Positions 5,221 to 33,954 of a DNA stretch of 64,000 bases are shown one piece after another. Made by a program: the position numbers and the translations under genes. The DNA lies in the NCBI GenBank assembly GCA_973895155.1, contig OZ316891.1:31069112-31133111 (forward strand), written 5' to 3'. Under the pieces are notes generated by a model. The model had not been told where the DNA came from and ran no database searches. It saw only the letters and a program-made list of their open reading frames with translations. How positions within the stretch are numbered: position 1 is the stretch's first letter; each line of letters opens with the position of its first letter. Source of the stretch: Marsupella aquatica. Lineage: Eukaryota > Plantae > Marchantiophyta.

Positions 5221-6469
5221 ATGTCCAGTTTTGGGAGTTCTGAGTTGGACTCAGACTCAACCTCGTCATCTTCTGAGGGGGACGTTCCTCCTCCCCCTCC
5301 TTGGACTCAATGTCCTCCTCCTATAGGACCTATTCCATGCTGGTGTGTTAGATGTAAAGGCATGGTGGTTCGTCAAGCCTGGGAAGCCATTGAGCACATT
5401 GAGCACTATGGCCGACATGAGGGTGATTTACCTGGATATTCTGCTCGCCAGGTATGCATAATTTATTGCGCTTGGAGACATTGATATGCACAAGTTGTAA
5501 CATTGCACCCATACATTTATTAATTGTTGGTATTTTTTGTGATTGAATAGGTGCCTCGTAGGACCTCTCCTCCATTGGTCTCTAATGACTTATGGGTAAA
5601 CACACTTTTGGCTGGTGCAAGAGAGTTGTTAGCAGCATCATCAGATCCCCCTCAATGTAGCCTCCCTTGTGTTGATCCGGAGACTATACCAATTCCATCT
5701 AGGGTTGGTCGCACCCGAGCACGTTCCCAAAGACAACGGCGTCGTTATGAACCCTTGGGTGTGCATGAGACCGAGGACCAAGTTCTGCACCATACTCATA
5801 GAGTACCGCCAGGAGAGTCCGACTATGTGGAAGTGGAAGGGAGGTTGGGGCTTTCATATGTCACTGGGAAGGCATTGACAGTCTTGAAGGATTTCTCATC
5901 TGAGAGATTCAAAATACCCCCTGGCCTAACCACTGACACTCCTATCCACATATGGGGTCACCAATGGATAGTGAAGACATCCTCCCTTGGTCCTGACATA
6001 GGATTTGGCGTATTTGCCTTGGAGGACATTTTGGTCCCTGCAAAGTCATGGGACCCGAGGTTATGATGGGGAGCACCTATTTCCATATATTGGTCCTGTA
6101 TACACTTCAAAAAGTTGGAACATTCTATTGCGCCAACACCCATCTTGGGGTGTCTATGCATTGCAAATGGATTCTGATCCAGATGAGGTCATGCGGAGGC
6201 CTTGGCATTCTCGGATGATTGATGGGGACCCTGTTCGCTCCGACAACATAGCCGGGTACATCAATAGTACTCGTGGGAGAGGGAGAGGACTTAGGCCTAA
6301 TGTTGAGTGGATACAAATATTTGGTCCACCTAGAGAGCCTTATTATGTAAAACACATGGATGACCATGTCATGACTGTAGCCATTACAACCATTAGGGCT
6401 GGCGAGGAGTTGTTTTGCGACTATGAGTGGGATGCTCCCAAGAAAGCATTCCTTTCTCACCCTGTGTAG
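5221..6469 (+). pseudogene. Spliced gene: N-terminal CxCxxC...H...H Zn motif plus SET-domain lysine methyltransferase; one frameshift near 6050
   Basis: Exon 5221-5451, phase-0 GT..AG intron 5452-5550, exon from 5551; SET motifs VKTSSLGPDIGFGVFALEDI, NIAGYINS, PNV and AITTIRAGEELFCDY split over two frames. Confidence 0.8.
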
Positions 6470-6534
6470 GGCAGACATGTATATACCACCTCTTTTGTTG
6501 AACATAAAATACATGACAATGTTTCCAAACAAAT

Positions 6535-9500
6535 TGTGACACGGGTAACATGTCACTTGACCGAACCCAGGTCATAGATTAGGACTTATACGGTCATTAG
6601 GACCGTAGCCATAGTGTAGAATAGCACGTATAGCCGTCTGTTGCCATTATGATTAGATTAGGAGTAGGTTAAGATGATCGAATCATTACGAGTTCAGGAA
6701 GGGGATTATTACGCGCGACCGAGGTACGGTGGCGGCAGTGGAGTAAAATTCAGTTAGAAGAATCACGCTTGGACCGAGGCGCCAACTTCAGCTCGCTATC
6801 AATGACCAAAACGGCCTGGCCTTCTCACGCTCGGGCTCATCCTGGCACCTCCATAAGAGAGGAGCCGATGGTGCTGCGGGTCATTTGCTCATGTCTACCT
6901 TTCTTTGAATTCGCGGACGTTGCCACCCACTTGCCCTGCTGATCGAATCGAGTTGACCTTTACAAGGAGATTATCGAGGGAGAAGAGCGGAATGTGGCGA
7001 GATTTAGTCAGGACGAGCGAGGCCTCCACGAGACAGAGGACCAGCCGGGTGGGAACGCGGACTCAACGAACCGGACTACGAGGTTAGTATGACCCTCACA
7101 GCCTTGGGATTTTGGACCTTGTTTGGCGAGGTAGGTGCTAAGTTCTCTGAGACTTACTGGTACTCTTGCCCCGAGAAAGCCGCTTACGAACGAAGATACG
7201 CGAGGCTGGTGACCAAGGTAGCACTGGTTAATTGCGAAAGGACAGCCATCACCAGGGATTCCAACTACAACGAGCTGCGAGACTACATCACCGAACTATA
7301 TCTCAGCGAGGAAGGGCTTAGATCGGTAGCTGAGGCGATTCTTGAAGTTCCAGCGAAGTTCTTTAAGCTAAAGGGCAACCAGCGGCTTACTCAAGCAGAG
7401 TTCGACAAGATTCCGGGGTACTTAGACCAGCAGATCGCAGCCGAAAAGCGCCAGGAAGACATCAGCAGACAACGGGAAGCGGCGCGTAATCTTACATTCC
7501 TCGGGGAAAGCTCCAACGCCTTCAACTAGGATATGGCTACCCCGATACCACCAGTGCCTCAACCGATGACGACCGGAGTACCGCCGAACCAGTCCCAAGT
7601 CTGTCCAGTAATCAACACGGAGTGTTCTTCGGGTTCCGAGCGAGCTAGTCCGCAACTCGAACATCGTCCTCGTAAGCGGCCAAGGACTACGACGGCCCCC
7701 GAATCAACACGGACCGACGCTGCGCCTGCACCTGCCCCGACAAACCTCCCGACCAACCAGACCCGACGGCCCCCGGATAACCCGAAGTCCAACTTATTAC
7801 AGGTAATCCGCGTCCCTGAAGTAGTCTGGATCGCGATCAAGAAACTCGAACATGCGGACTATCTCAAGGAGCATCAGTTGGAGCGGTTCGCCCACTTGCT
7901 ATGGAGGCCGTGCGCCGCCGGGCCGAAGGAGATTTGTGAGTTCATCTCCAATTTCGACACTGACGCGTCGACCACCAGGGTTTCAGGGCAAGCCTTATCA
8001 CTCACGGAGCATCGGTTAACGCAAATCTTCTGCCTACCAACCGGGCCGGTGCCGGTGGAAATCCGAATTCGGGATAAGAAGTATACGCCGCGGCACTTCA
8101 AACCCGAGGGTAAGACGGACAACGGATACAAGCAGGGGGCGTGCACCAACTTAACCTGTATGGAGCGGCTTAACTTCATACGGACTACCCTACACATGAT
8201 TGAGCCACGATCCAAGATTTCCCTCTACACGATCGTGCAGGTGGAACAGTACAAACGATGAAATTGGGCCCAATTCTTCTACCAAAGATTCTCGGGGGAG
8301 CTAAAGCGGGCTCAGGGTGGTATGGCTATTGGGGGGAAGACTTACTTGGGAAGTCATATCGCCATTATCCTCGCCTGGTACAAGGCACGGCGGGAGGCCA
8401 GAGGAAAGAATATGGCCACCTCAGCCCCGGGTAATGTCACCCCTGCCCCAGAGGAGGCAACCCCGACTACGCGGACTACCGTCCCTCGGGCAAACCCCGA
8501 GCCGGAAGCCCCGACTAATACTCCGCCACCGCCCCCTGTGGAAATTCTGCCGCCCCCTTCTGTCGAGCCTCCGCTACCCGCAGTACAACCACCCCCAATC
8601 CCTCCACCACCTGAAGAGACCTTCCCCTCCCAAACGCTGACTACGGAGGAGCTCATTGCCCCTGCCGAGGAACCACCGGTACCCGAGAGGATGGAGGACT
8701 ACCAAGTAGCCCCGGGGACCATGGCCTACGACCTGGTCTAGAAGTTTAGCCAGACTATGTCTGGGGAGCTGGCGACGTACATCGGACAACAAGTCTCGGC
8801 GTACTTTCAACCAGCCTTCTTCATGTTAGAGCACCAACCACGGATCGTAAGCCGCCTGGAAGAAGAACTCATGGCGAAGGGTGGAAGCAGGCGCAGTGCG
8901 AGGCAGTTAAGTCAGCGGCATCTTTTGGTTAGGCGTAACGACAGAATGACTGTCATTAGGCGCCGATTAGCGGCAGTAAGAAGAATTAGGGCCGGATCAG
9001 TTAGGATCAGCCAACGTAGGATGGAGTCCATCAACGGACTAGAATTAGTCAGTAGGCTTGGCCGTTGCCATTCCGGTCGGCACCTTGTCGTCGATGGTCA
9101 ACCAGTCAGTGCGGCGCGGCCAGTAGTCAGTAGGTAGTTAGTCAGTAGGTAGTATCCCGGAAGGCAGTATCCTTCGACTCTCCTCCGCGATTGTAGTATT
9201 TAGACTTCCCCTTCCGCTAAGGAAAGGGGGAGAAGGCTTAGTTATCTCAGCAGAGGGAAGGTGAGGCACGGGGAGTCCCGGCCTGAGCAGGGTCAGAGTG
9301 CACCAAGGAGTGAGAGCCAGAGTCGAGCTTGCTGGGCAAGTGCGAGGCAGGCCTCGTAGAGACTGGGCATCGACTGCCGTTGGGCCTGCTGACCCCCTTT
9401 GAAGTCGAGTCAACCATGTAAAGTGATGCTTCGCTGAGTAAATGTAGTCTTTTCCCCCTAATGTTTCTGCAAGTAACTGGTGTTGTGTGTATGCTTTGTC

Positions 9501-9845
9501 TGGGTAAAGGCGCCATTTTAAGGGACGTACCGGGTGCGGACTAATGGTAGGGATTGCCACTCATTGTATGTCACAAGGTCCTATCGTGTCGATGGCTTGA
9601 AAGGCCCCAAGCCGGGAGTTAGTCCGAGTCACTAACTGAGGGAATATTCCAGCGGTGGAAAACAAATATACCTATGACTAGTACAAATTATTCAGGTGTT
9701 ATACCGGTAAGTATATCGACTTAGCCCAACTTAGGGTTAATTGAGGTCACTACACACCTCCTTGCCCGAACCCTCACCCTTACTGGTGGTCGAGGTCGCA
9801 CCATGGCACTAAACTGGATTTAAGGCCCAAGTTAGCGGCGCGACA
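6535..9845 (+). repeat. 5' LTR of element A (~3.3 kb, ORF-containing)
   Basis: Begins at the TSD with TG, ends CA before a PBS-like motif; last 94 bp recur at 30690-30783. Confidence 0.75.
7089..9137 (+). pseudogene. LTR-internal accessory ORF of element A (unknown function)
   Basis: ORFs 7089, 7533, 8322 and 8757 are all in one frame, separated by single stops; clearly homologous to the 15525-17473 ORF. Confidence 0.75.
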
Positions 9846-9863
9846 TACGGCGACCGGTTTTTT

Positions 9864-9881
9864 TGGCGCTAGATGGAGGGG
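9864..9881 (+). promoter_or_regulatory. Putative primer-binding site of element A (primer RNA not identified)
   Basis: TGGCGCTAGATGGAGGGG 18 nt after the LTR end, preceded by a T run. Confidence 0.55.
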
Positions 9882-9960
9882 GCACTCATTTTGCCTTACG
9901 AGTGGAGCCGTGTAGTGAGCTAGTAACTTTTGATTTTGTACTCGACGTGTAGGAAGGGGC

Positions 9961-12900: not shown

Positions 12901-13092
12901 GAAAAAGGTTACCTGGAGCCCCGAGATTCCGTCCGTAGGTTACCTGGAGCCCCAAGGAGCTCCCAAGGGAGCAGCCGACAGTCTGGGAACCCGTGGCCTA
13001 CGATGGCACCAGACTAGAGGAATTGGAGGCTCATCTTGACCGGGCCACGAGAGACCATGTGGATGTAATCCGCAAGGAGCACTATGGCAATT
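9961..13092 (+). pseudogene. gag-protease of element A
   Basis: Retrotransposon gag (PFKG..DDPDEWIAEFE), three CCHC-type knuckles, protease VDGGSGVN...LLGRP*LY; frameshifts near 10890 and 12940, stop at 12488. Confidence 0.9.
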
Positions 13093-13223
13093 TGTGATGC
13101 CGCCGGTACGGCGGTTAATGAGTGATTCAGTCTAACTGCGCTCGGCACGCGCGTTAGGTGGGTCTTAGGCCGCTATTATTAGCATAACGACAGTATTTAG
13201 GTAATCATTAGGGGTAGGACATC

Positions 13224-15524: not shown

Positions 15525-17473
15525 ATGTTGCACACGATCCTCTCCAGCTCGGCCATTCGATTCTGGACGCAATTCCTATCTACCGGAAGGCACTTGGCCG
15601 ATTCATTGAAACACGCCAACCCGCGCCGATACGAAATCGAACGCGAATACGAGAGAGCCATCCGCCTAGCAGGACGACACCACTACATCCTTAACTTTGA
15701 CTACCCGTCTCAGAGCAAGCTTTACCGACCAGCAGAGGTATCTGGGTACTTCTTCAACGGAGACAAATATATCGGGTTCTGGGAAGCATTGCTTCGGCTT
15801 CCGGACGAGGTCTTCAACATCCCGGGTACAATCGACCTGCAGCGACATCACTTCGACCACATCCTTGCCCAGGTTCGGGCTGTCATTAACGGCGAGTCCA
15901 GTACCAACCGTTCGACAAGGGCGTCCGCACTCACTTCTAAGAACTTCTACCAGCACCTGCAGAGCTTCATGGGAACTCGGCCATCGACCAACATGACCAA
16001 CTCAGCCGTGCCCGTACCCGTACCCGTGCCCATGCAACCCCAGCCTCAACCTCAGGCTCAGCTTCAGCTTCAGCCTCAGCCGCAGCCTAGCCAAACCCCA
16101 CCACCTATCACCCAGCCAGCACAGGTACGCTCTGTCATCAACGCTGTGGATCTTAGCGATGACGACGAGGCTACCCCACCCTTGACCAGGCGGCCCAGAG
16201 GAACAAGCGCTCGGGGGGCCGACACTATATCGTCCCCACCCCCTGCTCTGACCCCAGGAGCGGCCCCAGCAGACAACATGGTGACCGTGGCCGCCCCGGG
16301 CCCGTTACCAACGGCAGTGACACTCCCCAGGCCCGATCGGGAGGATGGGGAAGTATCACCTTCCCCGAGTCAGTCACGGGGAAAGAAGAGGAAGGAATCC
16401 GCCACTGCATCCGGGTTACCGTTGGCCACGGTAGCCGTAGCCAAGGTGACGATGCACCGCATGGGGGAAAATGTTCACAACAACATCCTCCATCCCAAGC
16501 ATGCAGTGTACCTGAAGACTCAGGGATTTGAGCACCTCGCCTCTCTCCCCTAGAACACTTGCAGGTACTATGGGGAGGACATGACAGAATTCGTCAAGAA
16601 TTATGACGACATACGTCAACAGACTCGGCTGTGGGGAAGGAATATGTCCCTCACAGAAGAACGGCTCAAGATGATCTTCGGGTTACCCGAAGGTGACCAT
16701 CGAGTCGAATCACGGGCTCCCGGGGGCAAGGGGGCCAAGTACCAATCTTCATGTTTTCCCTCAGAGAGAGCAGTAGACAACAGGTTTGTGATGAGGACCT
16801 GCCTCATGCCCGAGATAGCTGAGCGGCTGGAGTTCCAAAGGTACGCTCTCCACATGATGGAACCCCGGGGGAGATCTCCGCCGCCCAGGTTATCCAGGTC
16901 GAGAACTATCGACCTAGGAAATGGGCGTCGTACTTCGCTAAGAAATTCCATGAAGAGATGGAGCGGCGAAGGAAGACGCTGTACATTGGCGGGAAGGCTG
17001 AGCTTCTGCAACTACAACCCAAGGTTGCAGCCGCCGATGAGTTGTTAGCAAAGGCGCACGCTCTTACCGCCCTAGCCGAACAGGCCAAAGCTGGGAACGA
17101 GGCCGAGATTACACGACTCCGGAACCAGATTGATAGTTTGAAGAAACAAGCTGTCACCTAGCAGAAAGACCTGGAGGAGGCCGAGGAGCGAGCCCAGCGG
17201 GACACGGCGGAGATAGCCACGCTGCAGGCCGAGATAGCGCGGCTCCAAACCGAGGCCGAGAAGCAGGATCAGCTGGCGGCTAAACTGACGAGCGATGCCC
17301 AGCAGCTGGAGGAGGCATGTCAGGAGGCAGCAGAGGAGACGGACGTGGCGAGGCGAGAGAACGAATCTCTGCTGGACCAGGTCCAGCTCCTCAAAGCGGA
17401 CAATGACAGGCTTCGAAGGCAGCGGGATGGCCGTTCCCATTCGGGCGACTCTGGCAAGCGTGCCAGGCATTAG
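15525..17473 (+). pseudogene. LTR-internal accessory ORF of solo LTR C (~650 codons; N-terminal domain, Pro/Gln linker, conserved core, coiled-coil tail)
   Basis: In-frame stops at 16551 and 17159, frameshift near 16870; homologous to the 7089-9137 ORF. Confidence 0.75.
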
Positions 17474-18326
17474 CGGCGGAGTAGGAATAGATTAGGATTA
17501 GGATTGGCTTAGTCAGGCTCTTGGGACAGGCATCTGCCTTAGGTACAACAGCGCTGCCCTGCTGTCCAGCCTGCGTAGATTAGGATCTTCTAATAAGACA
17601 CAGCCGTTTTCCGGCCTGACTGTCAGCTTAGTTAGAACCTTAGTCAGTGAATCTTTGGCGAGAGGACACCCCGTCCCTCGGCTCTTAGTATTTAGTGCAC
17701 CCCTCGGTAGAGGCAGGGGGGTTTTTAGTTTCAGAGTCAGACATCCGCGGGATATGCGGGGAGTCCCGACCTCTGGGAATGAAAGAGTACCAAGGGGAGG
17801 GGGTAGGACTAAGCTCGCCGGGCGAGTGCGGAGCCAGGCTCCGTTGTAGTGTGCACCCTCGGCCTTGAACCTATTCATTCCAGGGCTGTCGGGTCAACTA
17901 AGTGTACGCATATGTTCTCTTTATAGTAAAATCCTTTCCCATCATTTTCCTTTGTGTAAATCGAGATTGTATGCATGTGTGCGCATATGTGTGTGGGTTT
18001 CTCGTATATGGGTGGCAGCGCCAGGCCGAACGCACTACCCGAGACATGCACAGGGTGCAGCCTGCGGGTAAGTGGTTGCGAGCACGGGTTGGGGACCTGT
18101 ATCATCGAATCCGGATCGAAGGCGGACAGCACGAAGGCTTAGAAGCCCTTAAGCCGGGGTCGATCCTGCTATCAACTAAGGTACGTTCCGGCGGCGGAAC
18201 ACAAACCATACCTAGGAGGTGTCCGTATTTAGCAGTAGGCGCACTTAGCGCTAGTTTACGAGAATAAGGTGCATTACGTGCTTCCCTTCCTGCCCGAACC
18301 GTCGGATTTACGAGGAATGTGCCCGT

Positions 18327-19839
18327 TGTCGTGGGGATTCTTTGTTTAGTAAATTCCTCCTAAGTATAGCTTAGTAGTATAGGATAGTAGTTTAAATTCT
18401 CGCATATGCAGTCTATAGTGTGCATGCTACAGTGCATAACCTACAGTGTGCATGCTACAGTACACGGTCTACAGTATGCATGCTATATTGTTCGATCTAT
18501 AGTGTGCATGCTACAATGCAAGACCTACAGTGTACGATCTACAGTGTGCATGCTACAGTGTACATGCTATAGTGTACAATCTACAGTGTGCATGCTACAG
18601 TGTACGATCTACAGTGTGCATGTTACAGTGTACGATCTACAGTATGCATGCTATAGTGTACGATCTACAGTGTGCATACTACAGTGTACTGTCTACAGTT
18701 GCTCCACTCACGTAACTACAGTACTAGCACACTTACTTGCCTTGGATGTGTGACACATGGCTTCCATCCGTGTGCCATGCTTGATCCGTGTGCTTGAGGT
18801 GTGAGCACTATAAATAAAGAGGAGAGGGGCTCTCTCCCCTCACTCCCCATTTTCCATCAACTAAGTTGTGAAGTCTTAAAAATCCATTGGACTTGATGAT
18901 CTCTTCTATGAATATAACCCTTATGAAGTAGACCCACTCATGCACTCTTGCTTAGAGCTTCAGCTCGGCCAGGGATATTTTGTATGAGTCGGACCTTCAG
19001 AAAGTGTTGTCATTTGATAGGAGATGGTTATTAAGTTCTAAAGAGTTGGAAAGTGCTCAACAATGCCTTGACATCATATGCTCCCTTTTGGGTGAAATCC
19101 TTATGAAGTAGACCCACTCATGCACTCTTGCTTAGAGCTTCGGCTCGGCCAGAGGTATTTTGTATGAGTTGGACCTTCAGATAGTATTTTCATTCAAAAG
19201 AAGATCAACCTATTAAGATAAACATCTATATGTATATACTTAGAGTTAACTCAATGCATGATATTTGTTTGAAATGGATGATCTTTTTGTTGAATGATTC
19301 TATCTCTTGTCATTAGAATGAAAATTAGTTGGATGGAATATTTGATAGTACGATAATGCCCAGACCAGTACCTATTCTTCCTCTCCCTAATCCTTTCCTT
19401 ATTAGAATTCATGTACTCCAAAAGAGATAATGCGCCAGCATATGACTTTTCACTTTGGAGAAGCATTTGCAACTGCGGTATTAAATTCAATAGAGCCAAT
19501 TGTATACCCTTATGTAGTTTACGGGCAAGATTGGGCTTGCACAATTTTTATCTTGTATTGAGATGGATCTCAACAAACCTCCCTCCGATGAGCCTCTCGT
19601 TTCTTTCTCGTTGGGAGATATTCATTTTGTAACTCGACCCAAGGTAGCTGCCAAGGAGGCAATAGTCCGTAGGTATGGAGAAAAGGGTTATGATGTTGTG
19701 CTTTCATCCACGGAACCGTTCCTTGTGGTGTCTGCTACCCAGTCTAGAATAGTAATCATGATCTTAACTTAAGTTCTCTCTTGACACTAGCAGCCATAGG
19801 CCTGGTGCTTCCTCAAGAACCATATTTTTCCCCCAGACA
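18327..19839 (+). repeat. 5' LTR of element D
   Basis: Near-identical to 25795-27332; contains a 14-bp tandem array, TATAAATA near 18809 and an internal ~80-bp duplication (18919 / 19099). Confidence 0.95.
18405..18700. repeat. 14-bp minisatellite in LTR U3 (TACAGTGTGCATGC / TACAGTGTACGATC)
   Basis: Direct inspection; a longer version lies at ~25873-26210 in the 3' LTR. Confidence 0.9.
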
Positions 19840-19842
19840 TAT

Positions 19843-19860
19843 TGGCGACCATACTGGGGA
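19843..19860 (+). promoter_or_regulatory. Primer-binding site of element D (tRNA-Arg-like)
   Basis: TGGCGACCATACTGGGGA 3 nt after the LTR end. Confidence 0.7.
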
Positions 19861-19937
19861 AACTTGAGGCTAGTGTCAAAGATAAAAGGATATTGATGAG
19901 AGAAGAAGCTTGATAGAAAATAGAAGCAAAGGAGAAG

Positions 19938-22255
19938 TTGTTCACAATGGTAGGAGGAACTATGGAAGAGATGACTGAGATGTTTATGAGTTTGATGGAG
20001 GCCAAAGCACGAAGAGAGGCACCTGAGAACCAAAAGAAGGAGGAAGCAAGTCGTATGACCAAGTGCTTACAAGCCTTGTTAGCAAAGTTTGGGCAGTTCG
20101 ACGGGAGAAGAGCAACGCGGTACTTGAAAGAGTATTGGACAGAGGTAGCCATCCACAAGATCAGTGAGAAGGTTGCCATTCATGAATTTGCATCATTGGT
20201 GGAATCAGAATTGAAAGACATCATCACCAAGATTGCGGAAGGAGCCAAAGAGGATTGGAAAACATTTGAAATGAGGGTGAGAGAGGAGTTTCGATTTGAA
20301 GATCCAGATCGAGTTACTGCAGCCACGTTCCTTGGTTGGGTACAAGAGAAAAACAAGAAATTGGGACCTCAAGAATTATTGAGGGAATTCAATAGGCGCT
20401 ACCATCAGCTATCTTCAAAGGATCTAACAATAATCAGTCTCAGAAGAGGGGGTCTTTTGATCCGTGCAGCTGATATACCTTTGAGGGTAGAGTTGGACAA
20501 TGCTCTAGATGTTATTGCTCTAGATGCGGATGAAGTCACTTGGGAACAAGCAGAAGCTGCAATCCACAAGGTGACAAAGCAAAGGAGGAGAAGGGAGGTC
20601 GATCAAGAAGCGGAAGCTCCCATTCTAGACTTGAGAAAAGTCAGAGAAGAAAGCACTACTGATGGAGGAGAAAAAGAAGTCAAAAGCAGCATCACAGAAG
20701 GGGGCGACATAGCATCATTGACAGACATGATAGCAAAGCTTGCTCTTTCAATTCAAGCCTTGGAGAACAAAAACCCTGGTGGAACATCACTAGCAGCCTT
20801 GAATAAAAACTGGAATTGTTTGTGGTGTGATAGCAAGGAGCATCACAGAAGGGATTGTGGAGAACTGACAGAAGCATTGCGACTTTGACATGTCAAAGGG
20901 AAGATTGCATTTGTTGATTCTGGAGAGCCAATACCAATGAATGTGAACCGAGGAGGAATGAAGCAGATTGTGGAACAGAGAATGAGAGAGAAAGTTTCTA
21001 GTGCTGCAGCGATGTATGGTGATCCTTCTGTCTTCAGTCTTCAAGTTAAGAAGGATCTGCCTTCCATAGAGCATCTTGATATTATTGAGAGGAAGAGACT
21101 TGCGGAAAGTATCAGGAGAAAATCCGGTTGGGATGTGCCTGTGTTGATCAACTCTATCACTGCGGAAGTAGGAGCAGCATGGAATGCCGTTGTGGAAGAT
21201 AAGAGGAAGTATGAAGGCACTTCTATGGAAGAAACCCAAAGGAGAGAAAAATAACAGAGACCCGAAGCAGGACCTCGCTTCACACGTCAAGCCAAAGAGA
21301 AAGGAGTAAGATTTGAGGAGCCTGAAGCGTCCACAAGCAAGAGTCAAGAAAAAATCTCCCATGGAAGCTCAATGGATACTGACACCCCAAAGAAAGGTGC
21401 TAAGAAGAGCCCAGGCTATTTGCTTACTAGAGAGGTGGAGCAAACTGTTGATCCAGAAGTGATTGCCGAGAAATTTTGGCAGCAAGAGGCTAGGGGGTTC
21501 ACTAATGGAGAACTTTTTGGAAGTCTTCGTTTAGACTTACAAGGCAAGATCTTGGATAGGGCAAGAAGAAAAAGGGTTTACAAGGAGGGACCTCATGCAC
21601 TAACTGCCAAGATTCTTAGCTATGACTATGAAGATGATCTAGAAGATGAAGAAGAAGAAGAGGCATTGGAGGGAAATGTATTTTGTGCTACCATGAGTCA
21701 CCATGAAGCAACTACAGGTATTCATGGCAATGTAGCCTACATGAGGTGGATTTGCGGGAAACAATCCGACCATATTGGGCAAGAGCTTGCCCGGAGATTG
21801 AGGTGCAATTGCTTGGTGCTGAAGGAGGAATTCGGGCACTCCTAGACTCAGGATCTGATTTGAATCTAATGTCTAAAGAGACATACCAAAAAGGGCATTG
21901 GAAGATTGATTGTGACATCAAATGGAATGTCAATTCAGTGGGCACAAGGGCAAATCCCTTGTGGGGAGCATGTCCCGAGATCATGATCAAACTTGGGAAT
22001 GTGGTAGAAGCTATCAATGTCTTTGTATTTGAAAAACTTCCATATCCTCTTATTCTTGGTGTTCCTTTCATCACAGAATTACGAGTAGAGACCATGGTAC
22101 TTGACGATGGTACTCACATGGCAAAAGTGAAGAGCAAGGATGACTTGAAGAAGATTCAATTTCCCATACTTCGGCCAGGTAGTACAAGAGATCGTCGGGA
22201 ATTAAGAACAGTGGAGGAGTACAGGTCCGATCAGAGTATGAAGGGTTTTGACTAG
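19938..22255 (+). pseudogene. gag-protease of element D
   Basis: FDGRRATRYLKEY gag motif, CLWCDSKEHHRRDC knuckle, LLDSGSDLN protease; several in-frame stops and a frameshift near 21745. Confidence 0.85.
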
Positions 22256-22308
22256 GCGTCCCGCTAAGAGAAACGAGCAGGCAGGACGCCAAGCCTTTAG
22301 TCTCGTCT

Positions 22309-25300
22309 ATGGAGGTTCATTCCTCTTTTGTTGGTGTGAGTAGGACTAGTGAAGTGAGCTATTTTCATAAAGGTGGTGTGAAGAGGCGAGCTCAGAAGAT
22401 GTTGGAAAAGAAAGAAAAAGATTTGTTCACATTAGGAGTGTTGAAGGTTGAAGAGAGAATAGAAGGAGTACTAGAGGAAAGGGGATTACCACCCTCTCTT
22501 CGAGAGATTATTGGAGACATTGAGGAAGAAAATGGAGAAGTGGAGGTGGAAAGGGATGTGTATGGTTACATTGAGTGCTTTGCAAAAGTACACACAAAGT
22601 ACAAAACAGTGGACAAGAAGGTGCGACCTGCAGCAGTTCCCTTGCCATCTGAGGCTAAGGAAATATTGAGGCGAGCAAAGGAGGAGCCAAGTCTTAGAGA
22701 TCGTACTAAGATTGGGCATAAATTCACTGAGGAGACGTTGCTCAAATTAAAGATTGGTGATAAGGGTTTACTAGAGGAAGAGAGAAGAGCCTTCAAGGAG
22801 ATGATCATCAAACATGAAAAGGCCTTTTCCTTTTCCATTGAAGAGATTGGATGTGCTGATCCAAGGGAGATCACACCAATGGTAATCTTCACTGTTCCAC
22901 ATGTTCCTTGGGACCTTAAGCCAATTCCTGTGCCACGAGCACTGATGCCTAAATTGGTGGAGTTACTCAAGGAGAAGTTAGATGCCAAAATCCTTGAGAG
23001 ATCAAACGCTCCGTACTCAAATCGGTGGTTCACGGTGAGAAAGAAGAATGGGAAGCTAAGGTTCATTCAAGACATGCAGCCACCAAACAAGGTCACCATA
23101 AGGAATGTGGGCACAGGACCTGTGGTGGATGAGTTTGCTGAGGAGTTTGTTGGGAGAGCAATCTACTCCATTGGCGACTTATACTCAGGGTATGATCAGT
23201 TTCAGCTTGCCCAAGATAGCAGAGACATTACTGCCATGAGAACGCCACTAGGGTTGTTGAGAATGTGCACCCTTCCTCAAGGTGCAACTAACTCAGTGGC
23301 CCATATACAAAATGCCATGAATAGGATTTTGCAACCGTTTGTTCCAGAGAAGACTAGACCTTTTCTTGATGACATCCCCATAAAAGGGTGTTTGTACAAG
23401 GAGAGGGATCAAACACTTAGAGGAGATGGTCTAAGACAGTTTGTGTGGGAGCACTTACAAGATGTGGGAGCTATTCTACAAAGACTCAAGGAAGTAGGAG
23501 TAACTCTATCTGGAGAGAAGTCAGCTTTTGGGTTACAAGAGATCATGGTAGTAGGGCAAGTTTGTGGCCCTTATGGAAGAAGACCATGTGAAGCAAAAGT
23601 GGATGCCATCAAGGATATGGAGAACTGCATAACTACCTCAGAGGTAAGGAGATTTCTTGGGGCCTGCATCTTCTACAGAATATGGATACCACATTTTGCT
23701 CACATTGTAGAACCTCTCTATGATCTTCTAAGGAAGAATGTGAGGTTTGTATGGAGTGCAGGCCATACAAAGGCTATGCAACAATTGAAAGAAGCTTTGA
23801 CTAGCTCACTGGTATTACGACCTCTGAAGTACAATGGTATTGACCCAATAATTGTGACCATTGACTCAAGTCCTCACGCATCTGGATGGGCAGTTGGGCA
23901 AGATGAGGAAGGACAAAGGTTTGCCGCACGGTTTGGGGCAAAAATATTTACAGAAAGATAGAGGCATTATCCTCAAGTAAAACGAGAGTTGTGGGGTGCA
24001 AAGGTAGCACTTCGCCAAGAAAGAGACTATTTGATAGGAGCAAATGTAATACTGGGTACAGATTGCCTACCCTTGTTGGGAATGATAGCCAATTGTGATA
24101 CTCCAGATATTGCAATGCTTTGATGGATAGCATTCATCAGAATGTTTAATCCTGAGTTAAAGCACATTGCTGGGAGAGATAATCCAGTAGCTGATATGCT
24201 TTCCCGAGCTCGCTATAGGGACGAGGAAGACCAAGGAATGTGCCTTCATAGTACATATGGAGAAGATGAAGGGGAATTGAGGTTTGAAGAGGAAGCTTAT
24301 TCTGGGGAATTGTTACAGATAGGACGTTACCTTGCCACGTTGCAGAAAGATTCAACATGGAGTAAGCAAGACTTCAACAAAATTCGGAAGAAGTCTTACC
24401 AATTCATGGTAAGAGGTGGATCCCTTTGGAAGCATCCAAAGAAGAAGGGGCACATACTTCTAAGGGTCATTGGTAGAGATGAAGAGAAACACAAAATTTT
24501 ACATGACTTACATGATTCCGACGTGGTAGGACATAAGGGGCGAGAAGCTACTTATGAAAGGATTCGAAGACTATATTGGTGGTCAGGAATGTATGTAGAT
24601 GTAAGCAAGTATGTGGAAACTTGCAAAGTGTGTCAACTCTACTCGAAGGTGAAGCATAGAGATGGACTAAAACCCACGTACCCTCTTTCCCTACACTACC
24701 AATGGGCTGTAGATGTGGTACACATGCCGAGAGGAGTAAGAGGAGCCAAGTACCTTGTCTTGGCTATTGAGGACCTCTCCTCTTACATTGAAGGTAGAGC
24801 CTTGACAACAAATAAGACCGAGGCAATATGCAGATTTGTATTGGAGGACATCATTGCAAGGTATGGATGCTTTGATCGCATGAGGGCAGACAGAGGGGAG
24901 CTCAATGCAGAGGAAGCGGTTGCATTTTTCAGGAAGTTTAGGGTGAATCTCAAATTGACAACTGCTTACAATCTTGAAGGTAATGGCAAGAGTGAGAGGG
25001 GACACCAACCAATTGTGAATGCCTTGATTAAGGCATGCAAGGGAAGAACCTCACTTTGGCCAAATTTCCTTCCCCTAGCACTCATGGCACACAGAACAAC
25101 TTGCACATCGGTAACAGGATATGCACCTTCAGAGTTGATCAATGGTCAACTTCCACTTATGCCAATAGAAGAAGACATTAATAGTTGGAGGGCAATAGAG
25201 TGGGAGGATGGTGTATCTCAAGAGGATTTGATTCTTTGTCGCATAGAGCAGTTTGATCACACTCCTACAAAGATCCAAGGCGCCATTAAACAATTGAAGC

Positions 25301-25671
25301 AAAAGAGAATGGCTAACAAATCCCGCTTTGACAAGACCCATCGATTGAGACCCAAGACAATCCAAGAAGAGGATTGGGTCTTAGTTTCTGAAGGCGGACT
25401 CGGACAAGATCACTCCTCGATCAAGAAATTTGCACAACGTTGGAGGGGCCCATTTATAGTAGTTACTACTCACCCAAATTCCACTTACACTCTCCGTGAA
25501 TTGGATGGAGCAATTCATTGTGTGCCTTATGCAGGAAAAAGAGTGAAAATATTCAAAAGGCGAACACATTTTTTAGAGGAAGATCCCATCGATTCAGACC
25601 AAGAAGAGGAAGAAGAAGAAGAAGAAGATGAAGAACCTGAAAAGCAAGAGGAAGAAATATTCATTGAGTAA
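22309..25671 (+). pseudogene. pol (RT-RNaseH-integrase) of element D
   Basis: DLYSGYDQ, LPQGATNS, FLDD; RNaseH IDSS; HHCC zinc finger and D,D(35)E integrase, GPF; in-frame stops at 23959 and 24121. Confidence 0.93.
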
Positions 25672-25794
25672 AGTAAGAGATTAGTAGGGGTGACTATTAA
25701 GTGTGGTGCAGACTACAAGATGCACAAAATTAGTAAGGGTGACTATTAAAGTGTGGTGCAGACCGGAGGCTGCACAGGTTTAGTAGGGGTGATA

Positions 25795-27332
25795 TGTCGT
25801 GGGGATTCTTTGTTTAGTAAGTTCCTCCTAAGTATAGCTTAGTAGTATAGGATAGTAATTTAAATTCTCGCATATGCAGTCTATAGTGTGCATGCTACAG
25901 TGCACAACCTATAGTGTGCATGCTACAGTACACGGTCTACAGTATGCATGCTATATTGTTCGATCTACAGTGTGCATGCTACAGTGCAAGACCTACAGTG
26001 TACGATCTACAGTGTGCATGCTACAGTGTACATGCTACAGTGTACGATCTACAGTGTGCATGCTACAGTGTACATGCTACAATGTACGATCTACAGTGTG
26101 CATGCTATAGTGTACGATCTACAGTGTGCATGTTACAGTGTACGATCTACAGTATGCATGCTATAGTGTACGATCTACAGTGTGCATACTACAGTATATT
26201 GTCTACAGTTGCTCCACTCACGTAACTACAGTACTAGCACACTTACTTGCCTTGGATGTGTGACACATGACTTCCATCCGTGTGCTTGAGGTGTGAGCAC
26301 TATAAATAAAGAGGAGAGGGGCTCTCTCCCCTCACTCCCCATTTTTCATCAACTAAGTTGTGAAGTCTTAAAAATCCATTGGACTTGATGATCTCTTCTA
26401 TGAATATAACCCTTATGACGTAGACCCACTCATGCACTCTTGCTTAGAGCTTCAGCTCGGCCAGGGATATTTTGTATGAGTCGGACCTTCAGAAAGTGTT
26501 GTCATTTGATAGGAGATGGTTATTAAGTTCTAAAGAGTTGGAAAGTGCTCAACAATGCCTTGACATCATATGCTCCCTTTTGGATGAAATCCTTATGAAG
26601 TAGACCCACTCATGCACTCTTGCTTAGAGCTTCGGCTCGGCCAGAGGTATTTTGTATGAGTTGGACCTTTAGATAGTATTTTCATTCAAAAGAAGATCAA
26701 CCTATTAAGATAAACATCTACATGTATATACTTAGAGTTAACTCAATGCATGATATTTGTTTGAAATGGATGATCTTTTTGTTGAATGATTCTATCTCTT
26801 GTCATTAGAATGAAAATTAGTTGGATGGAATATTTGATAGTACGATAATGCCCAGACCAGTACCTATTCTTCCTCTCCCTAATCCTTTCCTTATTAGAAT
26901 TCATGTACTCCAAAAAGAGATAATGCGCCAGCATATGACTTTTCACTTTGGAGAAGCATTTGCAACTGCGGTATTAAATTCAATAGAGCCAATTGTATAC
27001 CCTTATGTAGTTTATGGGCAAGATTGGGCTTGCACAATTTTTATCTTGTATTGAGATGGATCTCAACAAACCTCCCTCCGATGAGCCTCCCGTTTCTTTC
27101 TCGTTGGGAGATATTCGTTTTGTAACTCGACCCAAGGTAGCTGCCAAGGAGGCAATAGTCCGTAGGTATGGAGAAAAGGGTTATGATGTTGTGCTTTCAT
27201 CCACGGAACCGTTCCTTGTGGTGTCTGCTACCCAGTCTAGAATAGTAATCATGATCTTAACTTAAGTTCTCTCTTGACACTAGCAGCCATAGGCCCGGTG
27301 CTTCCTCAAGAACCACATTTTTCCCCCAGACA
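25795..27332 (+). repeat. 3' LTR of element D
   Basis: Copy of 18327-19839, preceded by purine-rich AGTAGGGGTGATA. Confidence 0.95.
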
Positions 27333-27384
27333 CCGTCTAAGCTGAAGTCTGAGTTAAGGCCGAAGCCTACGACGTGACACAATT

Positions 27385-29960
27385 ACACCACAAGGAGGGA
27401 GAGAACATTCAACGTCGGTTATGGCCTACGAGCGCCAGAGGAAAAGGCCATCCAAGAACTCCTATCGGAATATGAGGACGTCTTTGCATGGAGTCACCGA
27501 GACTTAACCGGGATTTCACCAGCCTACGGTGAACACATCATTGATCTAAACTTAGGTGCGCATGCCGTCCGAGAGAGACAACGAAGACTAAACCCAAGAC
27601 ATTCCATCTTGGTAAAGGAGGAGTTAGATCAACTGATCGTGGCGGACATAATCTACCCCGTCTTATCTAGCGAATGGGTGTCCCCCATTGTGGTGGTTCC
27701 TAAGAAGGTAGGGCCTGATGGTAAACTCAAAATTTGAATATGCCAAGACTATCGGAAAGACCATTACCCACTTCCTTACACGGATATGGTCCTTGACATG
27801 GTAGCCCGAAATGAGGTGTACACGTTCTTAGATGGATATTCGGGTTATAACCAGATTTGGATCAGACTATCGGACCAGCTCAAAACCACGTTCATAACAG
27901 AGTGGGGAACCTACGCGTTCAGGCGAATGCCCTTTGGCTTATGCAATGCTCCGGCTATGTTCCAGCGAATCATTATGAATATTTTTCATGACTTCTTACA
28001 AGAATTTTTGGAGGTGTTCATAGATGATTTCGCCATCTTCGGAACAATCGCCCAACACCCCGAACACCTGAGGCGGACTTTGGAGCGGTGCCGAGAAGTA
28101 GGGTTGAAATTACATCCGGGCAAATGCTTCTTCGGGGTAACGGAAGGAGTGCTACTAGGACACCGAGTGTCCAAATGGGGGATCGAGGTGGACCAAGAGA
28201 AGGTGGCTGTGTGGATGAATGTCCCTTACCCAACGGACCAGAAGGCGGTGCGATCCTTCTTAGGATGCGTGGGGTACTACCGACGATTCATTCAGGACTT
28301 CGCTAAGATAGCCCTACCCCTCACAGAAATCATGAAGCAAGACGCGGTCATAGAAATGACTCCCCGTCGGAAATCAGCCTTTGACAAACTAAAAAACCAG
28401 CTAACAATGGCTCCGATTCTGACTACCCCCGATTGGAACAAGGAGTTCCATGTGTATGTCGACGTGTCTGGGTTCTGCATCGGCTCAATCCTAAGCCAAC
28501 TGGACGACCAAAAACGTGACCACCCCATTTACTTTGCGAGCCGACAACTGTTTACCGCAGAGAAAAACTATTCGCCCACCGATCGAGAGGCCTTGGGAAT
28601 CATCTACTCGTGTAAAAAGTTTCGCCATTATCTATTGGGATATAAGGTAGTATTCCATACTGACCATGATAGCCTGAAGTACATGGTAAACAAAGCAGAC
28701 TTAACGGGGAGAATAGCCCGTTGGGTCCTGCTGCTCCAAGAATTTAACTACGAAGTCAGGGTGCGACCAGGGAAAGCTCACGTAAATGCGGACTTCTTCT
28801 TGAGGATTGAAGGGGAATCGGACGACGCACCTGTCGATGATGCATTCCCGGATGAGGAGTTATTCCGCATAGAAACGGACCAACTAACATGGTACGGGGA
28901 CCTAATCACCTTCCTCTTAACGGCCCGCATTCCAAATAACATAAACCAAGAGGCCACGTCGGTCTTTTTGCGCAAGGCCGCACCATACATGATGATCCGC
29001 GGACATCTGCATAAGGAAGGCGTCGATGGGAAGATCCGCAGATGCCTAGATTATAACGAGACGATCATTGTCATGCGAGCTATGCACGAGGAAGAGGCAG
29101 GAGGACACTTCGCCCCGGTCACCACGGCTCACAAAATCTTGGACGCAGGTTATTGGTGGCCTACGCTTCATCATGACGTAGCCCATTTTATCTGAGGTTG
29201 TGACTTGTGTCAGCGCGCAGGCAAACCTCGCAGGTCGGGTAATCATCCTCTTACCCCAATCTTTCCCCTTGCCCCGTTTGAGAAATGGGGCATCGATTAT
29301 ATAGGACCATTCACTCCGGTAACCCGAGGTCGGCGTTGCCGGTACATCCTTCTTGCTATCGACTACTCGACTAAATGGGTCGAGGCCCAGGCAACGGTCA
29401 AGGATGACGCGGCCACCACAGCCAGGTTCCTATACGAACAGATCTTCACCCGCTTCGGACCTCCCTTAGAATTAGTCAGCGACCGCGGGACTCATTTTTT
29501 GAACGAAACGATGGAAAAACTGACTGACCGTTACCTCATCAAGCACAGGAAGACTAGTCCTTATCATCCCAAACGTAACGGACTAGCAGAGCAGGCTAAT
29601 GGCATTGTAGGAAAAATTCTCAACAAAACCGTGGTAGCCCACAAAACAGACTGGGATGACAAGCTTTTTGCGGCGGTCTATTCGTACAACTTGGCGTTTA
29701 AGACTACTACAAACCATAGTCCGTATTTCTTGGTGTTCGGACAACATGCGCTAGTACCTGTCGAGTTCGAGGTCAAGACCCCGCGGGTGCGCATCCGCCA
29801 CAGACTACCGGAGGCCGCTAGTTCGTCCGATCGAGCATATAAGATCGACAGTCTAGAAGAACAGAGATTGTGGGCATCGCGACGCGTAACTGCCAAGCAA
29901 GAAGCAACGAAGAAACAACACGACAAGGGACTGCGCCCGGTGGACATCACTACGGGAGAT
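27385..29960 (+). pseudogene. pol (RT-RNaseH-integrase) of element A, C-terminally truncated
   Basis: LDGYSGYNQI, MPFGL, FIDD; RNaseH YVDVS; PFEKWGIDYIGP, SDRGTHF; stops and a small deletion; breaks off at ITTGD. Confidence 0.92.
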
Positions 29961-30783
29961 TGTGACGCCAATGACATGGTCCTTATTTTGTAATCTGATT
30001 AAGTAGGTTGCTGTATGCAAGGAGTAGCTATTGATATTGCATAACAATTAGCAAGATGGCAAGAATAAGGGCAATCATGGCGTTAAGAGTAGGGAAATAA
30101 AAGCTATGTCGTAGGTGGTCGGCGACCATATCTCTTTCAATATGTCACCAAATCCGGATCTGTAAAGAGCATTGGAAAGATCTGGTCAAGGCGAGTAAAA
30201 TCGATATAAAACACTCGGGAAACGGAGGTGTATTAAGAAAGATACGGCCTGATTAGTGTGACGGGTTAACTTGTGGCCGGAATTAGCGGATTCGGCTTCA
30301 GTTTCAGGACACCCAAGCTCGACCACGGCTTAGCTTATGTGAGCACGGCTTCAGCTTAGCTTAGGTCAGCACGGCTTCAGCTTAGCTCAGGTAAGCACGG
30401 CTTCAGCTTAGCTTAGGTAAGCACAGCTTCAGCTTAGGCTTAACCCGGGTTCGGATTAGATTGATCCCGGGTTAGACTTAACTCGGGGTCAGGTTAGCAT
30501 AGGTAAGCTCGGGTTCGGGCTCAGCTTAGGTTAGGATAGCGGATAGCGGATAGCGGGTGACGGCCTAACCCGAGACCACGGGTTAGCTCTACTCGGGTTA
30601 GATAGGATAGCTAGGTTAGCCGAACTCGGGTTAGCTATGTAACTCGGGTTAGCGCAACAGTTAGTACCCCCTCTCGGTTACGGGGGCACACACACCTCCT
30701 TGCCCAAACCCTCACCCTTACTGGTGGTCGAGGTCGCACCATGGCACTAAACTGGATTTAAGGCCCAGGTTAGCGGCGCGACA
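29961..30783 (+). repeat. LTR-like segment F replacing the 3' LTR of A
   Basis: Starts TGTGAC exactly where integrase similarity ends; only the last 94 bp match the 5' LTR; internal 26-bp (agcacggcttcagcttagcttaggt(c/a)) and GGATAGC repeats. Confidence 0.7.
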
Positions 30784-30886
30784 CAAATTTGGTTCTTTGT
30801 ATAAATAAATCCTAAACCCTAAACCCTAAAACACTTGTCTCATTGTGGGTCTCTTCTAATATTTATGTATGTTTGTGAACTGCTAG

Positions 30887-33800
30887 AATGCGTATGTTCA
30901 ACCAGATGTGGGGGTATTATCACGAGCAATGCGGCAACACCTTGTCGAGGCCATGGAAGATTGGCGTAGGGCTCAAGCTTCAGCGAATGAAGATATCCCT
31001 CCTGAGCAAGTATCTAATGCCACCAATGACAGACTTGAGGATGAGAGGGCCATGGATGATCTCATGCACCAGTTCTATGACGTAGAGGATGGTGACCATG
31101 GTATGGGTGATGCATTTGACACCACAATACATGCTCATCGATCATGACATTCCTTCACGTCGAGGTTCCCACTCTAGACAATGGGAGGAAGCTCGTGACC
31201 ATGCACAAACAAGGATTTTTGAGGGGTCACAACTGTCTTGACTATCAGGAATAATGTTATTGTTGAACTTGCAACAAAGACATGGTGCAAGCAATCTCCT
31301 TCTTGATGATCTTTTCAGGACTTTGCATAGTCGGATTTTACCAGAAGGGAACTGCTTGCCTAGTTCCTGGAAAGGAGCAAAAAAGGTGTTGAAATCCATA
31401 GGTCTCAAATACGAAGTCATACATGCTTGTGTGAATGCTCGGGGGTCTCACTACATGGGGACCTCCCCATCACCTGCGACGTTTTTAGGCCATGGGCCCC
31501 CTAAAATGTAAGAATTTTATTTTATTTTTTAACCCCTATAAAGTTGGAATATTCTTGGAATATTCCAAAAATTGAATTAAAAAGGCCCTAATGTTCTTAT
31601 AAGTCTCAAAATTGAATTTGAAAGACCCTATTGTTCTTCTACAAAAATTCTTAAGTCTTCCCTTACAACCAATAAAATGACCCTATCCTTCGTCGCACGT
31701 GATATGCCATTTTTGTGGAAGTGAAACCCCCGAGTGTGAATGATTGTGGTCTCTTTAGGGGGGAACACAAAGATGCCACTACATGTCCTACATGTAACCA
31801 ACCGAGGTATCGAGAGGACATGCTCACTGGAAAAGTAGCACAGAAGGTCATGAGGTATTTTCCTCTTATCCCTAGATTATGGCACCAGTACCGATGTGCG
31901 GAGTTGGCTGAGTATATGGTGTGGCATTCCAAGAACCGGTCAGATATGACTTCAGATCCGCCCACCATGCGTATGATGGTGGACTCACCTGCCAATAGGT
32001 TTGTGGAGGACCGTGGGGTGAGTTCAAGACAAATCCACGTCATGTACGTCTAGGTTTGGCATCAGATGGGATCAGCCCCTTTGCATTGGCAGGGAAGGCC
32101 CAACCATACTCAGTTTGGCCAGTAGTCCTTACAAATTATAACATCCCTCCATGGATGGCCATGAAGAAGGGTCATTTGCTGCTCTCAATGATTATCCCAA
32201 GCCCCAAACAAGTAAAAAAGATTGATGTTTACTTGCAACCATTGTTGGAGGAGCTTCAACAACTATGGAGAGGAGTGGATTGCTGTGATGGTCGAGTGCT
32301 TTAGGGTTTAGGGTGAATTTAAATTGAAAGCCATCTGTATGTGGACCATACACGATCTTCCGGGTATGTGGAAATATACCTCACCCCATATAAATTATGC
32401 ATGGTTTGTCATTTCTGGATAATATACCTCACCCCATATTAATTATGCCTTGGTTTATCATATATTGGACCCCTGGCCATTGTTTAATGTATGCAGTGGG
32501 TGTGAACATTGTAGGGTTTGGATATATCTCTGGGTTGCAGGTCTCAGGATACCGAGCTTGCCCAACTTGTGGGCCCAATTTGGAGGGAGTGGCGCGCCCA
32601 AAGTCTACCACCCTACGGAAGATAGTTTACATTGGTCACACAAAGTATCTCCCCCAGAGCATGAATGGAGGCGTGACCCATTCTTATACGATACAGATGA
32701 TGGCCAACCAGACACACGCCCTCAACCAGTGCCAAGGGATCCACATTATTGGAAAGATGTATGGGATAGAGTGACAGACCCAGATGATCCATTACAATTG
32801 GCCTGATGTGGCATGACTCGATTGTCTGCATTAACGTCAAAGCTGCCATATTGGGCTAAGATGCCAATTAACCATTTGTTTGACCCTATGCACATTGAGG
32901 GGAATATTGGGAGGTTATTGATTTGCCATCTATATGGAGAGAAAGACAACAACTGGAGAGAGAGTTGTGAGGAGATGGGGATGCATGGCCCTCATGGGTT
33001 TTGGTCATCTATGGATCCTCCTAATGACCCCCTGACTATTCACCCTCCTTGGGTATTGACCAGAGGTGAGCGGACTGAGTTTCGCAAACGTATAGGGTCA
33101 ATGAGGTTTCCCACAGGTTATGGTGCCAATCTTCGTAAGGCATTTGGGGGTGATGATTCTCCAAAATGGCCATCTTACCTGAAAACACATGATTTCATCG
33201 GTTACTTGAACATGTCATTCCAGTTGCAATTATTGGATTGGGTAGTGAGGATCTTCAAGATGCCCTATGGTCATTAGGTAAGCTCTTGAGGTGGGTGTGT
33301 CAGAAAGAGGTGAATGAGGATGAGATTGCAGCGATGGACCTTTTTGGAGTGGAGGTATTGTGCAAGTTGGAGAGGGCACTCCCTCCTTCATTCTTTGATG
33401 GTCAAGTTCACTTCCTCCTCCACCTAGTGCGTGAGGTTGCGATTGCAGGGCCGGTACATTGTCGTTGGATGTACTAGGTAGAGCGGTATATGGGAGTGAT
33501 GAAGTCATATGTGTCAAATCGTGCAAGAGTGGAAGGTAGCATTGTTGAGCGTCATCTTGGAGCAGAGAGCATGTTTTATTGTACAAACATTGTAGCTACA
33601 CTTGATCCCAAAGCTCCAAGGGGCTGGATAGACAAGGCATCAAGGGAAGCAGACTTTGAGGATGACCGTCTCACAGGGGCAAAGGGATAACGAGTTATGG
33701 GCTCAACTGAGCGTCTTCAACTTACTACATTTATGTTGTATAACTCGCCTGAGATTGTGGGAGATTGGACAACTTTTTATGAGGAGGAAAAGGCAAATAG

Positions 33801-33954
33801 TCGTCGGTCACGCAACTTCCCCAAGTTTGTCCCATACATGAGGGCAAAGTTGACAGAGATTGATGCCTTGTTGGAGCAAGGGGAGAGTGTGTCAGACTTC
33901 TCTTTGGTTACAGACAGTCTTCGCACCTTGGTTCATGGACCATCATCATCATGA
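30887..33954 (+). pseudogene. CACTA Tnp2 transposase (Transposase_21 and DUF4218 regions), 3'-truncated
   Basis: LPEGNCLPSS..IHACVNDC..CPTCNQPRY, KVMRYFPLIPRL, ASDGISPF, YSVWPV..YNIPPW, DVYLQPL, HDLPG (intron 32364-32514), DPMHIEGN, LKTHDF, FFDGQVH..GPVHCRWMY; stops and frameshifts. Confidence 0.93.
31438..31734. mobile_element. MITE (297 bp) in the transposase
   Basis: TIR ctcgggggtctcact / agtgaaacccccgag; 8-bp TSD TGTGAATG; its removal restores HACVNDCGLF. Confidence 0.9.

Follow-up and report, generated by a model that had tools for sequence, protein, structure and literature searches.

A defunct CACTA transposon from a bryophyte carries a conserved SET-fold exon between its zinc-motif exon and its transposase body, with the zinc-motif exon probably spliced to either

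In maize En/Spm and in Arabidopsis EN/SPM3 and EN/SPM7, the proteins TnpA and TnpD are produced from one gene by alternative splicing, as described in PMC13547354 and bioRxiv 10.64898/2026.08.24.746577. Here we describe a related arrangement in 64,000 nucleotides of the liverwort Marsupella aquatica (assembly GCA_973895155.1, contig OZ316891.1, positions 31,069,112 to 31,133,111 of the forward strand), hereafter the window, to which all coordinates refer. The CACTA transposon in the window is a dead copy from a bryophyte family: a zinc (Zn)-motif exon, exon A, and the transposase body flank a conserved SET-fold exon, and exon A is probably spliced to either the SET exon or the transposase body. 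The layout of Zn exon, SET exon and rest of the transposase within a single CACTA element is almost certainly a family trait. Like En/Spm, this is a CACTA element with one predicted transcription unit for transposase and accessory protein, and the En/Spm accessory proteins, as far as these sources describe them, act on the chromatin state of their own element. In contrast, the En/Spm accessory isoform is described there as binding DNA through a helix-turn-helix (HTH) domain and depending on host demethylases, whereas here it would be a SET-fold protein sharing a coding Zn exon. A further difference is a separate gene lying head-to-head with the transposase gene here, which we presume to be TnpA-like.

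SET cargo has been described in other DNA transposons. The accessory gene PAG2 of the Plavaka elements (EnSpm/CACTA) of red algae encodes a SET domain (PF00856; bioRxiv 10.1101/2025.02.11.637652), so that there, too, SET lies inside an EnSpm-superfamily transposon. However, PAG2 is described as a separate gene fused to a DNA methylase, whereas in the present land-plant family SET is placed inside the transposase gene and fused to a Zn exon; DNA methylase PF01555 was absent from P0001, P0002, P0008, P0010 and P0011 at E ≤ 1. HarbingerS and MuDR of Phytophthora carry SET (as cited in PMC12730594), and Helitrons with SET are cited in the same Bostrychia preprint (bioRxiv 10.1101/2025.02.11.637652). 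As far as described, these are likewise DNA transposons with their own SET gene, in other superfamilies and hosts. In SETMAR (Metnase), a SET domain and a mariner transposase are joined by splicing, with the host SET upstream, and the result is a single-copy domesticated host gene. SETMAR thus resembles the present locus in having SET and transposase sequences in one gene, but here the family is multicopy and mobile and the isoforms are probably mutually exclusive; the SETMAR SET structure (3bo5) gave a Z of 6.9 against our SET model. The VANC anti-silencing proteins of VANDAL (MuDR), for which self-targeting is shown, are comparable in possible function only, as transposon-encoded factors that edit the chromatin of their own family, and no homology is claimed. 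Among titles, abstracts and passages we found no published description of a SET exon in a bryophyte CACTA element or of a shared coding Zn exon; subscription papers, Repbase and preprint supplements (the Plavaka family table, 962 Spm structures) may hold one. The available portion of PMC11982613 contains nothing on transposon-borne SET. SET cargo in DNA transposons and Spm alternative splicing are each known already, and in the accessible print record we found no land-plant case in which a shared coding Zn exon unites the two.

Exon A (5221-5451, + strand) comprises 77 codons with an in-frame ATG upstream at 5206. Its translation, its homologues and a profile comparison show a Ser/acidic and Pro-rich leader followed by a C-x-C-x2-C-x13-H-x4-G module. 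The exon ends at a phase-0 GT donor at 5452, and both translation and donor agree with the preliminary description of this DNA, which had placed a Zn-motif exon ending at a phase-0 GT here. A search of 1.8 billion representatives with exon A returned 14 matches, of which 13 are true homologues; P0060, an unrelated 1123-aa repeat protein, was removed. In an alignment of 12 homologues and the window, from which P0057 was excluded because its sequence begins past the cysteines, three Cys and two Gly do not vary. In 11 of these 12 homologues, conservation stops at a Val, as expected if they read into the GT donor. Exon A by itself had no Pfam match at E ≤ 10, and PF13963, the transposase-associated Zn domain, is the family that the largest number of its homologues matched (3/13, all below the cut-off). 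When the exon A profile was compared by hhalign with seven PF13963-bearing transposases, the motif was aligned (E 6e-05, hhalign probability 65%), and the exon A hidden Markov model (HMM) matched P0082 and P0081 in their PF13963 region, where Cys and His are spaced identically. Exon A is therefore a homologue of PF13963 at the level of sequence profiles, the link being made via its own homologues. The earlier assignment of exon A to the Tnp2-type Zn domain is thus borne out by profile homology and motif spacing, but not by the Pfam cut-off. A six-frame search of the window with the exon A HMM gave no second candidate for a Zn exon. A weak match near 18050 (− strand, E 0.001), without C-x-C and inside a nest of retrotransposons, was rejected.

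Exon A is separated from the SET exon by a GT-AG intron of 99 nt (5452-5550, + strand) with a branch-like TTAAT 31 nt before the exon. The SET exon (5551-6469, + strand) encodes a variable Pro/Arg-rich linker of ~90 aa and a conserved SET module of ~215 aa. The near acceptor AG ends at 5550, the exon continues from 5551 in frame with exon A, and PF00856 matches 6002-6466 above the cut-off (E 1.2e-06). Acceptor, frame and domain are as previously proposed, but readthrough is broken in this copy by one extra base near 6050, which leads to a stop at 6064-6066. We assessed sister copies in four public runs (X1-X4; two organisms, two studies, no run recorded as RNA) that cover all 30 bins of 1-6700. 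In all four runs and both studies, sister contigs lack the extra base (at 6050 or 6053), and in X2 and X4 this is supported by all of the depth. Because of these contigs, the SET frame is open in at least part of the family copies. Other SET-exon indels among those listed keep the frame (3 bases at 5818, and a skip of 90 bases at 5634-5725, found in each of the four runs). Diverged sister contigs agree with the window as far as 5455, differ beyond it and agree once more from 5536-5540, as expected if the splice sites are kept and the intron between them is free to change. For SET and for the transposase alike, the best named homologues come from Calypogeia fissa, which makes a liverwort host probable. 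Identities to C. fissa are 83% for exon A, 34% for the linker, 59% and 78% for the N- and C-terminal halves of SET, and 75% and 86% for two transposase segments. Since the SET module is about as conserved as the transposase and the linker is not, this pattern indicates purifying selection on the module, as judged by sequence identity. Scans for SET relatives yielded two loci of 82 candidates in metagenomes, both unrelated canonical SETs at 37-38%, and none in viruses.

Thirty-eight columns are invariant over 26 SET homologues, including both Gly of GxG, Asn280, Gly326, Glu328 and Tyr333. With residue roles assigned by motif order, all 26 homologues retain the GxG motif for S-adenosylmethionine (SAM), the NH-motif Asn, GEE and the terminal catalytic Tyr. 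A structural model built from the 26 sequences reached a pLDDT (predicted local distance difference test) of mostly 70-85 over residues 131-330, and Foldseek returned SET domains only among the matches listed (E about 1e-5). In the VIA comparison, SETD8 gave a Z of 9.1 (root-mean-square deviation 3.8, 128 aligned), within a range of 8.3-9.1 for SETD8, EZH2, Set1, SET7/9 and NSD2, and PRDM2 (Z 8.4) and PRDM5 (Z 7.9) were nearly tied with them. Because EZH2, Set1, SET7/9, NSD2 and PRDM2 all lie within 1 Z of SETD8, no substrate is assignable; neither the histone-SET subfamily nor, hence, the substrate can be read from the modelled fold. Atlas placement assigned the protein to a 50-member, mostly streptophyte SET cluster (score 0.97). 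The SET isoform is probably a SAM-dependent protein-lysine methyltransferase. The family is divergent, with NS in place of NH, no post-SET and an extra conserved N-terminal module, and may therefore have a new substrate. We also considered that exon A might stand in for the missing post-SET, and rejected this, since a partner Cys after NS occurs in only a few homologues.

The SET exon is followed by a spacer that is now interrupted by a later 24.2-kb nest of Ty3/Gypsy long terminal repeat (LTR) retrotransposons (6535-30783, + strand), which does not belong to the CACTA family. The nest has TG...CA ends and a 5-bp target-site duplication (TSD), CAAAT, at 6530-6534 and 30784-30788, so that the 5′ half of the spacer (6470-6534) ends in one copy of the TSD and the 3′ half (30789-30886) follows the other. 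Once the insert is taken out, 163 nt separate the SET stop (6467-6469) from the transposase exon at 30887, which matches the CAAAT duplication and the distance of about 160 bp given in the preliminary description. Its single "LTR element A", however, had to be given up: the ends share just 94 bp, and the insert is a nest of several elements. The 3′ half of the spacer contains an AATAAA at 30804, a branch-like CTAAT at 30856 and the acceptor AG at 30885-30886. This far acceptor is in phase 0 and in frame with the acidic linker of Tnp2, as had been claimed for the join to exon A. It is preceded by an AG-free stretch of 96 nt, as are 12 of 2081 windows of similar GC, and a branch-like site is found at −31 in both introns, before the near and the far acceptor.

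Transposase exon 2 (30887-32363, + strand) encodes the acidic linker and the N-terminal part of Tnp2 (PF02992 at 31999-32301, E 7.4e-31). It is followed by a second, phase-1 intron common to the clade (32364-32514, + strand) and by exon 3 (32515-33945, + strand) with the rest of Tnp2 and DUF4218 (33193-33468, E 2.5e-13). The open reading frames (ORFs) of the closest homologues, P0071-P0079 (n = 9), stop at this intron, just past the HDxPG motif, whereas ORFs of the sister clade continue across it. CACTA transposases have been reported to gain and lose introns (PMC4158355). Both exons are broken in this copy. There are four in-frame stops (31239, 32804, 33475 and 33688), about five frame changes, a 297-bp miniature inverted-repeat transposable element (MITE) inside exon 2, and a cut 3′ end, so that the last ~170 aa present in P0018 are absent here. 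The "30.9-kb ORF" of the preliminary description therefore does not exist as an ORF, and 33954 belongs to a deletion scar and is not the end of the gene. The MITE itself (31438-31734) has terminal inverted repeats (TIRs) and an 8-bp, hAT-like TSD.

In a transposase tree of 28 rows spanning the core segment, with duplicates removed, the window groups with P0071 and P0072 (98/98). The Zn motif is absent from the ORF throughout the window's larger group (12 rows, support 86/88). In the sister group (13 rows, 100/99), the motif is in frame in 11 rows, and the remaining two seem N-terminally cut. The tree and the second intron fit a transposase that carries its Zn module on a separate first exon. 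Given the good acceptor context, the lack of another Zn exon in the window and the related transposases that hold the module in one ORF, a splice from exon A to the transposase is likely.

Relatives with gene models show parts of the same arrangement. In C. fissa CAM6082608.1 (P0001), the join between exon A and the SET exon falls where it is predicted here, and in CAM6082316.1 (P0057) of the same species the order is exon A, SET-exon linker and transposase N-terminus. In Riccia sorocarpa KAL3690087.1 (P0064), the Zn motif is joined to a SET-like motif. We consider the splice from exon A to the SET exon very likely on this evidence. The layout in the window and in the Calypogeia models upholds the earlier view that the SET exon lies in transposase intron 1; the two isoforms that this view entails are likely on sequence grounds. 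SET P0020 and transposase P0072 (JGI) are both on 5790-nt sequences, and exon A P0055 and SET P0037 are both on 1885-nt sequences, which is only a hint of linkage and could be chance.

These features suggest how the element might work. Use of the near acceptor at 5550, together with intronic polyadenylation at the AATAAA just beyond the SET stop, would give a Zn-linker-SET protein of ~385 aa. Skipping to the far acceptor at 30886, which was ~1.2 kb away from the donor until the LTR nest inserted, would give a full transposase with the usual N-terminal Zn module. The SET isoform would transfer methyl groups to lysine, and the shared Zn module would contact the transposase or the TnpA-like protein and so bring SET to the element's own ends. 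In Spm elements, it is the TnpA-type HTH domain, not the Zn module, that is credited with DNA binding (bioRxiv 10.64898/2026.08.24.746577), and TnpA-TnpD complexes are predicted in Arabidopsis (PMC13547354). Because of this, indirect targeting would be likelier than DNA binding by exon A. That the SET isoform is brought to the element's ends through protein contacts of the Zn module and marks the chromatin there is possible but rather doubtful. A still broader proposal, which we regard as unlikely in its entirety, is that in a bryophyte-wide CACTA lineage the transposase gene acts as a two-way switch, pairing the Zn exon with either the transposase or a divergent histone methyltransferase. The shared module would dock the enzyme on sites of the element's own transpososome, so that the transposon would write its own histone mark as a self-targeted chromatin writer of land plants, maintained by selection in both major classes of liverworts. 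The plant anti-silencing factors that are known (VANC, TnpA) bind DNA and depend on host enzymes; a transposon-encoded lysine methyltransferase in land plants would, if true, be a direct writer, and this could be tested in bryophyte models. The shared exon would likewise, if confirmed, give a first handle on the role of the transposase-associated Zn domain.

Several observations, given here and in the next paragraph, weigh against a reading in which exon A is spliced to either the transposase or a SET methyltransferase. The splice to SET is predicted here from genomic DNA and gene models, and that to the transposase from genomic DNA. The gene models of Calypogeia and Riccia were made automatically and report neighbourhood, not transcripts; either P0057 or P0064 may stem from a deletion copy or a wrong prediction, and linkage of SET homologues was read from the minority with known genomic context. 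In X1 and X3, about half of the depth supports the missing SET base. The window's transposase clade is supported at just 86/88, and PF13963 exceeded the Pfam cut-off in 0/13 exon A homologues (best E 0.025; P0064 scored 13.4 bits against 27.7). None of the 14 exon A matches and none of the 9 closest transposases combines exon A with a full transposase. This last absence would also be expected if exon A, taken from a transposase, belonged to the SET gene alone, and the transposase started inside the spacer without Zn, giving two tandem genes and no alternative splicing. The fit to a separate Zn exon falls short of proving the splice, because an in-frame ATG at 30929 allows a Zn-less start, and four related ORFs (P0071, P0073, P0076 and P0079) begin with M-R-Q/E nearby. 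The AATAAA after the SET stop suits tandem genes as well, and Arabidopsis Spm families alternate between spliced and split-gene layouts (PMC13547354). We nevertheless consider tandem genes quite unlikely: the spacer is just 163 nt, the acceptor context is clean, 14 codons are open before the ATG, the ATG starts were probably chosen by gene callers, and the sister clade retains the Zn module on the transposase. The exact order of exons in P0057 would instead suit a transposase whose transcript is spliced from a donor inside the SET exon, with exon A, SET linker and transposase in one protein and isoforms that share more than exon A. This is one automatic model, equally explained by an internal deletion, and by eye the window has only a weak GT at the matching place, which makes an internal donor very unlikely.

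With splicing to either partner retained as the preferred explanation, the activity of the SET product has to be weighed separately. Canonical SETs carry Asn-His, but the His is replaced by Ser in 26/26 homologues, and a cysteine post-SET is not present, the proteins ending 1-11 residues past the Tyr+1 position. The SET model has an overall pLDDT of 59, and a sequence search against solved SETs in the PDB gave a best E of 0.9. It is a serious possibility, somewhat short of an even chance, that SET binds without catalysing anything, or that it acts on a target other than histones, such as the transposase, as a form of self-regulation and not of chromatin writing; this overlaps with our preferred explanation as far as splicing is concerned. 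In its favour, PR domains are among the near-tied folds and no histone-SET subfamily stands out, besides the altered NH motif and missing post-SET. However, PRDM9 is active without the NH-motif His, some active SETs also lack a Zn post-SET, and the invariance of GxG, Asn and terminal Tyr speaks for catalysis. Finally, the SET exon of this copy is frameshifted and the ends of the LTR nest match over 94 bp only, as might be found if SET were a captured host fragment decaying neutrally or lay next to the transposase by accident of the nest. This is extremely improbable and largely refuted by the conservation of SET relative to the transposase, by many intact diverged homologues, by the recurrence of the linkage in Calypogeia and Riccia models, and by the 5-bp TSD at the TG...CA ends.

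All of these parts are held by one CACTA insertion that spans 516 to ~34001 and has lost its right end. We place its limits here because CACTAG follows TGA on the left and because a loose end in run X4 joins the flank to 34005. The 3-bp TSD, TGA, is at 513-515 and 34002-34004; in the empty-site-like loose end, left-flank-like sequence runs directly into sequence at 34005, and the duplication depends on this single loose end (2 contigs, one run). The left end (516-970) consists of the CACTAG terminus and a subterminal cluster of ATCGGA/TCCGAT repeats (12 copies at 555-962), with further clusters at 2853-2990 and 4396-4503. Tnp2 (PF02992, DUF4218), a 3-bp TSD and a subterminal repeat cluster were all found, as in CACTA/EnSpm elements. 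In the window, no right TIR matching CACTAG was found near the transposase end; the right part is deleted in this copy and replaced, together with the right TIR, by a scar (33946-34004) whose short inverted filler is a reverse-complement copy of 33933-33950. A deletion up to the target site with inverted templated filler is like break repair at that end, possibly after abortive excision.

The second, divergent gene of the element is multi-exon and lies on the − strand (1249-4358), with ORFs at 4358-3420 and 2472-1249. A Pfam scan of the window, which covered 35 ORFs, gave no family above the cut-off for this gene, and a single-sequence model of its protein was all-helical and uninformative (pLDDT 42). 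It likely encodes a TnpA-like accessory protein, a likeness that neither the Pfam scan nor the fold model confirmed. Its Gly/Ser-rich exon (1249-2472) consists of 81-bp tandem units that vary in number between sister contigs. Short telomere-like runs of TTTAGGG/CCCTAAA occur at 1016-1050 and 30812-30830, just beyond the 3′ ends of the minus-strand gene and the SET exon.

Within the LTR nest, 6535-9845 comprises 3.3 kb from a TG start to a CA end, followed by a primer-binding-like site, and resembles an LTR-like segment with an accessory ORF in it. Its ORF region of ~630 codons (7008-8900) has no Pfam family and is 32-34% like an ORF at 15525-17849. At the other end, integrase homology stops at 29960 and a different LTR-like sequence begins (29961-30783), the last 94 bp of which match the 5′ LTR end at 98%. 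The outer ends likely arose by recombination between two related Gypsy families, with the outer TSD retained. A nested Gypsy at 18327-27332, with 1.5-kb LTRs that are 94.7% alike, gives a rough minimum age for the nest.

Further along the window, a second CACTAG terminus at 35397 (35397-52500) has AATGAC/GTCATT subterminal repeats and 83-bp tandem units and represents a different CACTA-like family; no matching far TIR was found. It is split by a young Gypsy element (37521-51077, − strand), which contains an extra 881-aa ORF (39488-42133) without a Pfam family next to near-intact gag and pol, and whose 1.4-kb LTRs are 99.6% alike.

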